The notes beneath the pieces were generated by a model, which saw only the letters and a list, made by a program, of their open reading frames with translations, was not told the origin of the DNA and ran no database searches. Both the position numbers and the translations under genes were made by a program. Of a DNA stretch of 9,864 bases, positions 3,285-7,996 are shown one piece after another (the stretch's first letter is position 1; every line of letters begins with the position of its first letter). Source of the DNA: a virus (lineage: Duplodnaviria; Heunggongvirae; Uroviricota; Caudoviricetes); IMG/VR virus record IMGVR_UViG_2695420817_000017; one strand, 5' to 3'.

Positions 3285-3358
3285 GCAGAATTTAAAACGG
3301 TATATTATCGCCGTACGGATCATCATTCCCCGACTGTTGTTTTGCCCTGTTCAGTGCG

Positions 3359-3715
3359 TCAGTGGCCTGCCCCTGCTGGCCTTTTTTTGCCGCCCGGTCG
3401 CGCCGTTCGCGCACTGATTACGCTGTCTGCGATAACCTGCCAGCCCTGCCGCGTTTCGCCGTTCTGGCCTGTCCACTGGCTTACCTGCATGTTACCCGCC
3501 ACGCTCACCAGTTCGCCTTTGTGGTGTTTTGCCAGTGCGTCGGCCTGTCTGCCAAACGCCAGGACGGATAACCACATCGTCGCCGTTCCGTCATCTGCCT
3601 GGCTGCACGGAAGGGGGACCGCCATACTAGCCATCGCCATTTGTGTACCCTTGCTGATGGTCTTTAACTGCGGGTCAGCCACCAGCCGTCCGTAAGCCGC
3701 TATCTGTGCTGTCAT
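3359..3715 (-). CDS. SSB-like OB-fold protein lacking the acidic C-terminal tail (118 aa)
   Basis: ATG 3715..3713 with GGAGAG 8 nt upstream; start overlaps the stop of the upstream ORF (ATGA). YGRLVADPQLKTISKGTQMAMASMAV...WLSVLAFGRQADALAKHHKGELVSVAGNMQVSQWTGQNGETRQGWQVIADSV follows the bacterial SSB OB-fold pattern (G-L-DP..., W..V..FG..A...KG..V.V.G...W.D..G..R). C-terminus is basic (PGGKKRPAGAGH) instead of an acidic DDDIPF-type tail. Confidence 0.6.
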   Translation of the reverse strand: MTAQIAAYGRLVADPQLKTISKGTQMAMASMAVPLPCSQADDGTATMWLSVLAFGRQADALAKHHKGELVSVAGNMQVSQWTGQNGETRQGWQVIADSVISARTARPGGKKRPAGAGH

Positions 3716-6758: not shown

Positions 6759-7079
6759 TTATCCCCGATTTGAATCAGTATTCGCTTTCTTTATAGCATT
6801 TAATGCATCTGTGGCATTTTCAATGGTGCACCGTAACGAAATATCAAAATGTCCAAGCATTGCCAGTAACAAACCAATATTACCCATATCAATGCGCATG
6901 GCCTTTTCGTCATAGTCCTCATTTTCTGACGCATGCCACATCAGGCTACCAATTGACGCAACAGCCATTGATATATTGTCAGTAGCCCCATCCGCAGCGG
7001 AATAAACCTTTTTAGCAATATCATGCTCACAGTTAAAATGCGGATTAATCAGGTACTGGTAATTTGACATATCAGGCAT
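6759..7079 (-). CDS. Hypothetical acidic protein (106 aa), AT-rich cassette gene 1
   Basis: ATG 7079..7077 with AGGGGG upstream, overlapping the stop of the upstream small ORF by 8 nt. Net charge about -7. Alternative start at 7070. No family recognised. Confidence 0.55.
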   Translation of the reverse strand: MPDMSNYQYLINPHFNCEHDIAKKVYSAADGATDNISMAVASIGSLMWHASENEDYDEKAMRIDMGNIGLLLAMLGHFDISLRCTIENATDALNAIKKANTDSNRG

Positions 7080-7275
7080 GGCACACCCCCTGACGAATAC
7101 GGGCAGCGAATACCATCACGCAGCCAGCCGGGGATTGCAGGCGTGCTTCCTGTTCGCTGGCGGCCTCAATGGTAATCACGCGCGGTTGTGCCGTGCTCAG
7201 GGCGATAAAACGCCAGATGTATTTATTCAGGTTGTGCGAGTCCCGCCCTTGCGGGTGTGTGGTATGATTTAACAT
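7072..7275 (-). CDS. Small protein (67 aa), possibly host cell division inhibitor Icd-like family
   Basis: Only the last 67 codons of the 304-aa track ORF are credible: ATG 7275..7273 preceded by GAGG; MLNHTTHPQGRDSHNLNKYIWRFIALSTAQPRVITIEAASEQEARLQSPAGCVMVFAARIRQGVCHA. The WRF...FAARI pattern recalls Icd-like proteins of P4-like islands; this is recollection only. First gene of the operon leading to the primase. Confidence 0.5.
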   Translation of the reverse strand: MLNHTTHPQGRDSHNLNKYIWRFIALSTAQPRVITIEAASEQEARLQSPAGCVMVFAARIRQGVCHA

Positions 7276-7372
7276 AGCTACCTCGATACGCTTTCTATCG
7301 TTGGTGGTTAGAAGCCCGGTTAGTGTTAGCGCACTGCCGGGTTTCGTCGTTTCTGCACCTTGCATCAACAAG

Positions 7373-7424
7373 GTGTTGAACACCAATTTAAGCCCTGGTG
7401 TTAAACACGTCAAGTGTTGAACAC
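7373..7424. promoter_or_regulatory. Three operator-like palindromes GTGTTRAACAC in the divergent promoter region
   Basis: GTGTTGAACAC at 7373..7383, GTGTTAAACAC at 7398..7408, GTGTTGAACAC at 7414..7424 (centre spacings 25 and 16 bp). The third overlaps a possible plus-strand -35 (TTGAAC 7419..7424, 17-nt spacer, CATACT 7442..7447) for the RHH gene. Confidence 0.6.
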
Positions 7425-7474
7425 TTATTTTTTTTCCTGCATACTGCATTTGTTTTTTGTAAGGGGTACACAAC

Positions 7475-7654
7475 ATGGCGACAAAAGCAGTAAACGCAAA
7501 ATCACAAACAGTTGCGGCAAGGGTTCCGCATGAAGTTATGAACAATGTTGAGGCGGTAAAAATGCCTGGTGAAAGTACAGGGCAGTTTGTAACAGCAGCA
7601 TTAAAGCGAGAAGTTGAATACCGCCAGCGTCGCAAGGCCAAAGAGCAGGAATAA
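7475..7654 (+). CDS. Ribbon-helix-helix (CopG/Arc-like) small DNA-binding protein, 59 aa
   Basis: Absent from the ORF track (under 60 aa). ATG 7475 with AAGGGG 8 nt upstream, stop TAA 7652..7654. MATKAVNAKSQTVAARVPHEVMNNVEAVKMPGESTGQFVTAALKREVEYRQRRKAKEQE fits strand-helix-loop-helix. Divergent from the replication operon. Confidence 0.6.
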   Translation: MATKAVNAKSQTVAARVPHEVMNNVEAVKMPGESTGQFVTAALKREVEYRQRRKAKEQE

Positions 7655-7711
7655 CCATCACCAGCGCCGTGGTGTAAGGTATTACGGCGCATTGCTATGC
7701 AGGACAACACA

Positions 7712-7885
7712 ATGACCGATAAAGAATTGACCAAAACATTATCACCGGCACGGAAAAGACGGCGCAGAAAGATAGAGCATGAATCAGAAAGATTCGCGCC
7801 ATGTGCTTTTGCCCTTGAGCAATTCCTTAAAGAGTACAGGGAAACGCGCCCATTGCAGGTATGGCAACGAACTGAACCAGACTGA
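7712..7885 (+). CDS. Hypothetical small basic protein (57 aa)
   Basis: Second ATG of the track ORF, chosen because AGGA lies 7 nt upstream (7701..7704). MTDKELTKTLSPARKRRRRKIEHESERFAPCAFALEQFLKEYRETRPLQVWQRTEPD, with an RKRRRRK basic patch. Followed by a plus-strand terminator. Coding status uncertain. Confidence 0.4.
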   Translation: MTDKELTKTLSPARKRRRRKIEHESERFAPCAFALEQFLKEYRETRPLQVWQRTEPD

Positions 7886-7949
7886 TTGCATTGCCCACCA
7901 GCCTGATAGCGGCTATCATCCCCGTGCTTATGTTTAGTGTTTTCCCATT

Positions 7950-7977
7950 GGCGACCGCCCCCGGTCGCCTTTGTTTT
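7950..7977 (+). terminator. Rho-independent terminator between convergent genes
   Basis: Stem GGCGACCG (7950..7957), loop CCCC, stem CGGTCGCC (7962..7969), then TTTGTTTT. Sits 65 bp after the small plus-strand ORF and 20 bp after the alpA stop. The minus-strand reading lacks a U-tract. Confidence 0.65.
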
Positions 7978-7996
7978 ATGTGTCATATGCTCCCCT

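Follow-up and report, generated by a model that had tools for sequence, protein, structure and literature searches.

The window analysed here is the whole 9,864-nt stretch of IMG/VR record IMGVR_UViG_2695420817_000017, assigned to the Caudoviricetes; it is a Gram-negative phage-inducible chromosomal island (PICI) of the EcCICFT073 type. The region under study lies between its alpA gene and its Icd/Kil-like gene, where two small plus-strand genes, ylcI (ORF1) and ORF2, are enclosed antisense within a 304-aa open reading frame (ORF) of the minus strand. With moderate confidence, we read this region as the regulatory switch of the satellite, in which both strands are used. A plus-strand operon, consisting of a promoter (7417–7445), ylcI, ORF2 and a terminator, would make the repressor YlcI; bound to three GTG-N5-CAC operators, YlcI would shut an internal icd/primase promoter, the proposed counterpart of PLE in P4, and would also autoregulate ylcI. 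ORF2 would be a basic accessory specific to Escherichia. The long minus-strand ORF would be the counterpart of P4 eta with its nested kil, and would have to stay open while its sequence hardly matters. Once the alpA promoter is activated by a helper phage, ribosomes would trail RNA polymerase through the cassette, and this coupled translation would spare the read-through transcript from termination, probably by Rho. The replication operon would then be expressed despite YlcI, and head-on transcription would silence ylcI. The case is made in silico, from genes, sites, covariation and frame maintenance, and it is from these that binding, repression and an anti-termination role of translation are inferred.

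The evidence for a repressor comes from the operators. Within the window the sequence GTGTT(G/A)AACAC occurs at 7373, 7398 and 7414 only, where 0.44 occurrences would be expected, and the three sites are spread over two divergent promoters (Table 1). Relatives of all operator types have kept the TTGACG of the minus-strand promoter almost unchanged. The ylcI promoter was read by eye and is under the threshold of the consensus scan (8/12 matches); its −10 element is TATACT, nearly invariant, in the relatives. Each of the 50 cassettes surveyed, from E. coli and about a dozen other genera, has three GTG-N5/6-CAC sites in identical placement. The operator core changes in step with the β-strand of YlcI, one-to-one, through about 10 specificity types, and residues 12 and 14 are those that covary with it. 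These two residues are variable and polar, residue 13 is mostly hydrophobic and R16 is invariant, which suggests the pattern expected of the DNA-reading ribbon of a ribbon-helix-helix (RHH) protein.

Linkage between neighbouring genes could produce such a pairing, and recombinant loci (compared loci are given by their L numbers) break it. L012 has YlcI and operators as in the window and a different ORF2, L003 has the ORF2 of the window with different YlcI and operators, and L013 and L005 have AlpA in common while their YlcI and operators differ; the operators therefore track YlcI, not ORF2 or AlpA. A repeated operator over the regulated promoters, with a specificity that matches the allele of the repressor, is the arrangement found in immunity repressors. 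Because the operators covary with its β-strand, YlcI is probably the island's immunity repressor, and the suggestion of the first-pass annotation that the locus may encode a repressor is very probable. YlcI would bind the three sites, repress the icd/primase promoter and regulate its own synthesis.

The ylcI gene itself had been proposed in the first-pass annotation as an unannotated RHH gene with a good Shine-Dalgarno sequence. The gene is real: the 59-aa frame at 7475–7654, preceded by AGGGG, matches NF041551 (YlcI/YnfO; DUF3950) with 59.7 bits (cut-off 30, E=2.1e-16, residues 9–50) and phrog_949 with E=5e-22. It is, however, already annotated, since RefSeq PGAP carries it as WP_000201462.1, 'YlcI/YnfO family protein', in a 100%-identical genome. 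An AlphaFold model built with 29 homologues (pLDDT 80.6) has an extended N-terminal segment and two helices. This is the order of a β-strand followed by two helices that characterizes the ribbon-helix-helix (CopG/Arc/MetJ) class, and an RHH fold is predicted for YlcI on this model. YlcI matched no Pfam RHH family at E<=1, and its profile matched no PDB sequence.

Several variants of the gene were seen in the comparison. At L009 (1633–1938) YlcI is 101 aa long, 42 residues being inserted behind its RHH core, and the antisense frame remains free of stops across them. The name YlcI/YnfO is also given to other, very common proteins of 101 aa, of which one occurs on about 1000 contigs. L010 (555–2138) contains two ylcI-ORF2 cassettes in tandem, one of type SVTARI and the other of type MTTVRI; each has operators of its own, and a single minus frame of 527 open codons spans both. 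In the K-12 prophage DLP12, ylcI (L057 6252–6446) is oriented opposite to its neighbours ybcW and nohD and stands alone.

The plus-strand transcript would end at an intrinsic terminator whose 8-bp stem has 7 GC pairs and is followed by TTTGTTTTAT. The terminator is found in 16 loci from many genera, with compensatory changes in the stem (GGCGACC / GGCGGCC / GGCAGCT), so that the GC-rich hairpin, the U-tract and the compensatory change by which intrinsic terminators are recognized are all present. The first-pass annotation was right to place a terminator behind the pair, and the element lies beyond position 7885, at which that annotation had ended the locus. The end of the T-tract is 5 nt from the complement of the ATG of the long minus-strand ORF in the window, and 2–10 nt across loci. 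As the terminator abuts that ATG, the ylcI(-ORF2) RNA is complementary to the mRNA of the long ORF from about codon 3, and we speculate that it blocks initiation on leaky read-through transcripts. Between ylcI and the plus-strand terminator, L014, L022, L027 and L052 (Klebsiella, Pectobacterium, Yersinia) share a conserved element, TATTCnGGTTCGCCTGAACAnnAACnCTGCTTAGGTTC, which corresponds neither to a plus-strand ORF nor to an Rfam match.

ORF2, described in the first-pass annotation as a 57-aa frame with an RKRRRRK patch, is present and holds the patch ARKRRRRK. An upstream ATG at 7697 would give an alternative version of 62 aa (7697–7885, plus strand). The match to phrog_21027 (E=3e-16) begins at Met6, and the equivalent of the ATG at 7712 is always 58 nt past the ylcI stop (14/14 E. 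coli cassettes); from this fixed, conserved start and the extent of the family match, the 57-aa version is taken to be the correct one. The homologues (n=38) come only from Escherichia and Shigella, all are called 'hypothetical' and none has a Pfam domain; PGAP annotates the gene in CFT073 and others. No ORF follows ylcI in any of the 36 loci from non-Escherichia genera (36/36), and L010 and L012 carry unrelated variants in its place. The AF2 model of ORF2 consists of two helices at low confidence (pLDDT 67).

It is possible, but unlikely, that ORF2 is non-coding, that 7655–7949 is a 3' untranslated part of the ylcI RNA, antisense to the 5' part of the long minus-strand ORF, and that the apparent conservation of ORF2 reflects this antisense role together with the minus frame. 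In other genera ylcI is indeed separated from this terminator by 90–475 nt of non-coding plus-strand RNA, the start of the minus-strand ORF is always directly adjacent to the terminator, and some ORF2 homologues have frameshifted C-termini; the low confidence of the AF2 model points the same way. Set against this are the ATG and Shine-Dalgarno sequence, at a fixed distance in all E. coli cassettes, the membership of a PHROG family and the many PGAP calls. Three otherwise unrelated ORF2 variants also keep the pattern F-A-(PCAF)-L-[ED]-x-F-[LV]-x-K, with conservative changes. The comparison of conservation and dN/dS that the first-pass annotation had proposed as a check gives a median dN/dS for ORF2 of 0.25 in the plus frame and 0.41 in the minus frame, the plus value being lower in most pairs; both frames share wobble positions, so that in an overlap dN/dS separates the strands poorly and favours the plus frame modestly. 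Judged by these patterns of conservation, ORF2 is probably a real small gene, specific to Escherichia.

The long minus-strand ORF has its ATG 10 nt past the alpA stop codon, and is an in-frame upstream extension of the 67-aa Icd/Kil-like gene. This form of start recurs in 20 loci from many genera, where a Shine-Dalgarno sequence is followed by an ATG that lies 11–13 nt past the upstream stop or overlaps it. In nearly all E. coli relatives the equivalent minus frame is free of stops for about 300–530 codons, and it stays open where ORF2 is a different one or the cassette is duplicated. In the other genera it is open for 200–410 codons at most loci, the other two minus frames running for 3–78 codons.

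With the plus-strand proteins held fixed and the non-coding parts shuffled, the probability that the frame in the window has no stops is 7e-4; for the overlapped parts alone, given the plus-strand proteins, it is 0.30 (ylcI) and 0.75 (ORF2). The 240-nt flanks of ylcI have zero stops in 17 of 26 representative loci, where 6–11 are expected. Over all flanks 56 stops were observed against 230 expected, and the other two minus frames have 5–23 stops per locus. The ylcI stop and the terminator are separated by a distance that is 1 mod 3 in 21 of 23 loci, with 19 distinct lengths between 91 and 475 nt; by our own estimate, which counts distinct lengths only, chance would give this with a probability of about 1e-7. 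The non-coding DNA of the plus strand contains many indels of 3n nucleotides, with the minus frame kept across Enterobacterales. As a control, the antisense frame of K-12 DLP12 ylcI is 91 codons long and ends no more than 50 nt beyond the gene in either direction.

The product of this frame has a different character. The 304-aa ORF has no family match outside its last ~90 residues, and the 237-residue extension contains 5.1% Cys and 1.3% Glu. In close pairs, and in stretches without an overlapping plus-strand gene, dN/dS of the extension is 0.65–0.81, and the three codon positions share the substitutions evenly. The long ORF thus appears, from the way its frame is maintained, not to be an artefact but to be kept open for translation. 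The first-pass annotation had called it almost certainly an artefact; what survives of this is that the amino-acid sequence across the overlap looks unconstrained, and what does not is the dismissal of the frame, given the conserved Shine-Dalgarno sequence and ATG, the absence of stops beyond chance, the reading in frame with the Icd/Kil-like gene and the P4-like layout. What is conserved is probably that translation continues without a break from alpA to the following gene, rather than the peptide. That continuous translation is conserved, and not a fusion product, follows from L005, L010, L011 and Pectobacterium, which are without an in-frame Icd fusion.

The layout has a close parallel in P4, where the AlpA-like vis (ORF88) is followed by a 214-codon ORF that contains eta (197 aa) and the in-frame kil (65 aa). 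Both P4 and the window have an AlpA-like gene, a long ORF that starts next to its stop in a manner suited to translational coupling, a Kil/Icd-like gene of ~65 aa nested in frame at the 3' end, and a primase operon; in both, the long ORF encloses an internal promoter as well as the immunity determinant. By eye, the C-terminal half of P4 Kil resembles the Icd-like proteins of the window type. In P4, Kil is a truncated form of Eta, and translation of eta is reported to prevent termination, so that the upstream promoter reads through (PMC10111431). By this analogy, translation of the long ORF in the window would probably allow transcription from alpA to pass through the repressor cassette. The immunity determinant differs: in P4 it is a processed RNA of the same strand, and in the window it would be an RHH protein of the opposite strand with its own promoter, terminator and operators. 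Rfam places C4 (the CI RNA) and isrK (seqA) inside the P4 ORF. Both are also found in L005 (1129–1314) and L012 (1140–1328), between the ylcI cassette and icd and inside the long ORF, which in L012 is open for 456 codons; these loci therefore carry both a protein and an RNA immunity module.

A tentative extension of this reading, to which we give less credence than to the reading itself, is that YlcI is the master repressor of Gram-negative PICIs, that its cassette is nested antisense in a 'spacer' ORF existing only for translation, and that the plus-strand RNA doubles as antisense. In the uninduced state the ylcI(-ORF2) RNA, whose end is 5–12 nt from the start codon of the spacer ORF, could block translation of that ORF, so that leaky read-through would terminate. 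The cassette would then be a protein-and-antisense analogue of the CI-RNA immunity of P4.

Alternatively, the long ORF could be selected for its protein, an Eta-like isoform of Icd/Kil with a fast-evolving and probably disordered N-terminal extension, anti-termination by translation being incidental or absent; we regard this as rather unlikely. The ORF is in frame with the Icd-like domain at most loci, the 304-aa protein is annotated on 214 contigs, and a dN/dS of 0.65–0.8 is slightly below 1. Some islands have BRO-N-type genes fused to the frame, and eta has been described as a gene for a 'Bro network' protein (PMC10111431). Against this, Cys makes up 5% and Glu 1% of the extension, substitutions fall evenly on the codon positions, and no family match lies outside the last ~90 residues. 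The ORF also stops at the next gene in L005, L010 and L011 and, in Pectobacterium, reads past icd in another frame.

It is very improbable that the minus-strand ORF is a functionless shadow of the codon structure of ylcI and ORF2, with only the plus-strand genes real. The minus frame shares wobble positions with the plus-strand genes, the absence of stops is unsurprising in the overlaps taken alone, DLP12 ylcI also has an antisense frame of 91 codons, and the odd composition and near-neutral evolution of the product would suit a shadow. Against it, the frame described here stays open for hundreds of codons past the plus-strand genes, through promoters, leader and terminator, in many genera, and the DLP12 control frame ends close to its gene. 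Non-coding indels that keep the frame, the conserved start adjoining the upstream stop and the continuation into the Icd/Kil-like gene, as in P4 eta/kil, also speak against it. The remaining alternative, raised in the first-pass annotation, is that ylcI and ORF2 form a type II toxin-antitoxin pair (an RHH antitoxin and a small toxin that stabilizes the island), and was rejected as barely credible: an RHH gene first, a small ORF second and a single terminator is the usual order, but ORF2, of only 57 aa, has no match to a toxin or defence family in Pfam, NCBIfam or PADLOC and is not an obligate or conserved partner of ylcI, being missing at all 36 loci examined outside Escherichia, replaced by unrelated variants in L010 and L012 and absent beside DLP12 ylcI, and the operators cover the divergent promoter of the replication operon, not the cassette's own promoter only.

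A number of observations weigh against the switch described above, that is, against YlcI as repressor of a cassette crossed by a translated ORF. The link between operators and YlcI is a correlation, aware of linkage, drawn from sequences. The dN/dS comparison, as noted, resolves the two strands of ORF2 poorly. A minority of loci (L019, L024, L026, L029, L033, L046, L051) have an interrupted or short minus frame, and in L005, L010 and L011 the long ORF stops at the start of the next gene, or slightly within it, without fusion to icd. In the BRO-N islands the long ORF is without a nearby ATG and a GTG start overlaps the 3' end of BRO-N; L002 has a GTG only. No strong rut-like C-rich tract was found on the minus-strand RNA. 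The window is without C4 or isrK, the immunity RNAs of P4, in an Rfam search at E<=1, and the mechanism of termination may therefore differ from that of P4. A tblastn search of phages with the 304-aa ORF found the Klebsiella satellite vB_KppS-Ant only, and not P4, so that the comparison with P4 rests on position, nesting and the visual similarity of Kil. Finally, AlpA-family proteins can be antiterminators (PMC9998450); translation of the long ORF could therefore be dispensable, or complemented.

Among Gram-positive islands, the Stl/Rpr repressors of SaPIs resemble YlcI, as proposed here, in silencing the replication operon as divergent repressors and in having many specificity types. Stl/Rpr is a large helix-turn-helix (HTH) protein and YlcI an unrelated RHH protein of 59 aa; SaPIs are induced when a helper protein binds the repressor, whereas transcriptional read-through from alpA is proposed for the window, and in the window int and alpA are co-oriented with the replication genes, unlike in Gram-positive PICIs with Stl/Rpr. 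With the RHH repressors P22 Arc and Mnt, CopG and omega, YlcI shares its small size, the β-α-α order and alternating polar and hydrophobic strand residues, as well as several short operator subsites over promoters, which on the YlcI side are predicted from sequence. Antisense embedding in a translated ORF, as proposed for YlcI, is not a feature of those repressors. YlcI of DLP12 and YnfO of Qin, both K-12 lambdoid prophages, belong to the same family (DUF3950), the DLP12 gene standing in a different context next to nohD; no function of K-12 YlcI or YnfO was found in the literature searched.

The EcCICFT073-type PICIs share both island type and gene order with the window, including a 'Bro zone' between alpA and the replication genes. 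This zone has been described as unidirectional, with Bro-type proteins and immunity RNAs (PMC6092414, PMC10111431), and the antisense YlcI cassette with its operators was not found described in the literature searched, those two papers included. In EcCICFT073, a helper phage induces alpA, and AlpA then activates the island; the global repressor of Gram-negative PICIs has been termed 'unclear', and their contrast with the Gram-positive islands 'a mystery' (PMC6092414). EcCICFT073 itself (L058 243–1053 = NC_004431.1 1380242–1381052) has an identical layout of ylcI, ORF2, Icd-like gene and open frame. Its YlcI (WP_000190587.1) represents a further specificity type, with GTGGGCCACAC sites, its ORF2 is annotated as WP_000130015.1 (57 aa), and its main-strand frame runs without a stop for at least 350 codons, into the Icd-like gene.

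In the window, every large gene lies on the minus strand. The order is int, alpA, the ylcI region, the Icd-like gene, a 106-aa ORF, DUF4222, the DUF927 primase and ssb, followed by the major capsid protein, a head-decoration protein, an HTH protein and the small terminase. The window is placed among the PICIs because its int and alpA point the same way as a primase/replication module and it has captured a few capsid or packaging genes; the definition also names a size of about 10–15 kb. E. coli AR_0077 is 100% identical to the window and has the island inserted between cspD/yljB and clpS. In the window ssb is split (about 3292–3715, minus strand) and PGAP marks a frameshift in the identical genome; this copy may be partly defective.

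The Icd/Kil-like gene at the 3' end of the long ORF matches NF033153 (Icd-like host cell division inhibitor) with 65–67 bits (cut-off 25), at 7072–7220 only, that is, residues 256–299 of the 304-aa ORF. PGAP annotates Icd-like genes of 62–69 aa, the counterparts of 7275–7072, in most relatives examined. Exactly antisense to the gene is a 64-aa ORF (7078–7272, plus strand) with a weak match to phrog_4106 (E=3e-4), probably a shadow ORF that found its way into a phage protein family. The leader of the gene is conserved across genera, with HP1 almost invariant, CUUCUAACCACCAACG single-stranded and invariant, and compensatory A-U/U-A swaps in HP2 in 6 of 13 sequences. It could control the translation of Kil/Icd, or be a target for RNA or Rho. 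A weak symR-like Rfam match at 7276–7348 (plus strand), which corresponds to HP1, scores 32.8 bits, far under the gathering score of 61; identity with SymR was rejected in favour of a conserved leader hairpin.

That automated annotation would miscall this locus, as the first-pass annotation had expected, is borne out by the public records, which are inconsistent. PGAP splits the 304-aa ORF into an 'Icd-like protein' (7383–7072) and an 'Icd-like pseudogene' (7986–7656), and the latter, the upstream 110 aa, has no NF033153 match. At least four incompatible annotations are in circulation: a 304-aa 'Icd-like' protein, two fragments of which one is a pseudogene, and versions with or without ORF2 and with or without ylcI. 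In the induced Klebsiella satellite 'phage vB_KppS-Ant' (L014 2578–3552, LR881103.1) a long ORF of 324 aa is annotated, its start overlapping the upstream stop as ATGA, and the 67-aa ylcI on the opposite strand was missed by the annotators, the reverse of what PGAP does in E. coli.

Table 1. Features of the ylcI region and its surroundings in the window, and β-strand types of YlcI with their operator cores.
Feature	Position	Strand	Details
Integrase	9864-8626	-	
AlpA-family regulator (alpA)	8293-7997	-	stop codon 7999-7997
Shine-Dalgarno GGGGAG of the eta-like ORF	7995-7990	-	between alpA stop and ATG (7986-7984)
Eta-like long ORF, 304 aa	7986..7072	-	antisense through terminator, ORF2, ylcI, operators and leader
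Intrinsic terminator of the ylcI-ORF2 transcript	7950..7979	+	GGCGACCG-CCCC-CGGTCGCC, then TTTGTTTTAT
ORF2, 57 aa	7712..7885	+	basic, proposed switch accessory; SD AGGA 7700-7703
ylcI-like gene (ORF1), 59 aa	7475..7654	+	proposed immunity repressor, RHH-type
ylcI Shine-Dalgarno AGGGG	7462..7466	+	8 nt 5' of ATG, read from sequence
Putative ylcI promoter	7417..7445	+	TTGAAC (7417-7422), 17-nt spacer, CATACT (7440-7445); -35 inside O3
Candidate operator O3	7414..7424	.	GTGTTGAACAC; overlaps ylcI -35, just upstream of minus-strand -35
Putative internal icd/primase promoter	7385..7413	-	TTGACG, 17-nt spacer, TAAATT; consensus scan
Candidate operator O2	7398..7408	.	GTGTTAAACAC; spacer of minus-strand promoter, abuts its -35
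Candidate operator O1	7373..7383	.	GTGTTGAACAC; just downstream of -10 of minus-strand promoter
icd-like leader	7276..7372	-	HP1 (7341-7315), invariant CUUCUAACCACCAACG, HP2 (7300-7284) abutting SD
Icd/Kil-like gene, 67 aa	7072..7275	-	own SD GAGG 7284-7281; nested in frame at 3' end of long ORF
DUF927 primase	6471-4333	-	
YlcI β-strand TVAARV			operator core GTGTTGAACAC
YlcI β-strand MTTVRI			operator core GTGTATTTCAC
YlcI β-strand KLEARV			operator core GTGTCAGCCAC
YlcI β-strand SVTARI			operator core GTGTAAGACAC
YlcI β-strand KIHARV			operator core GTGGAACACAC
YlcI β-strand RFDVRV			operator core GTGTCGGACAC
YlcI β-strand QLNARF			operator core GTGAATCGCAC
YlcI β-strand QKKIRF			operator core GTGCACCCCCAC
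YlcI β-strand ALKARV (EcCICFT073)			operator core GTGGGCCACAC

Gram-negative and capsid-forming PICIs are common in Enterobacterales, where they move virulence and defence genes. YlcI is a testable candidate for the missing repressor of the Gram-negative PICIs, with about 10 allele-specific operator types. The locus would represent a rare arrangement, in which an ORF is conserved for its translation rather than its product and complete genes are nested antisense within it. If the proposed switch is true, the logic of P4 eta/kil would extend to a much larger group of satellites; what is new with respect to P4 would be an immunity determinant in the form of a protein cassette on the opposite strand.

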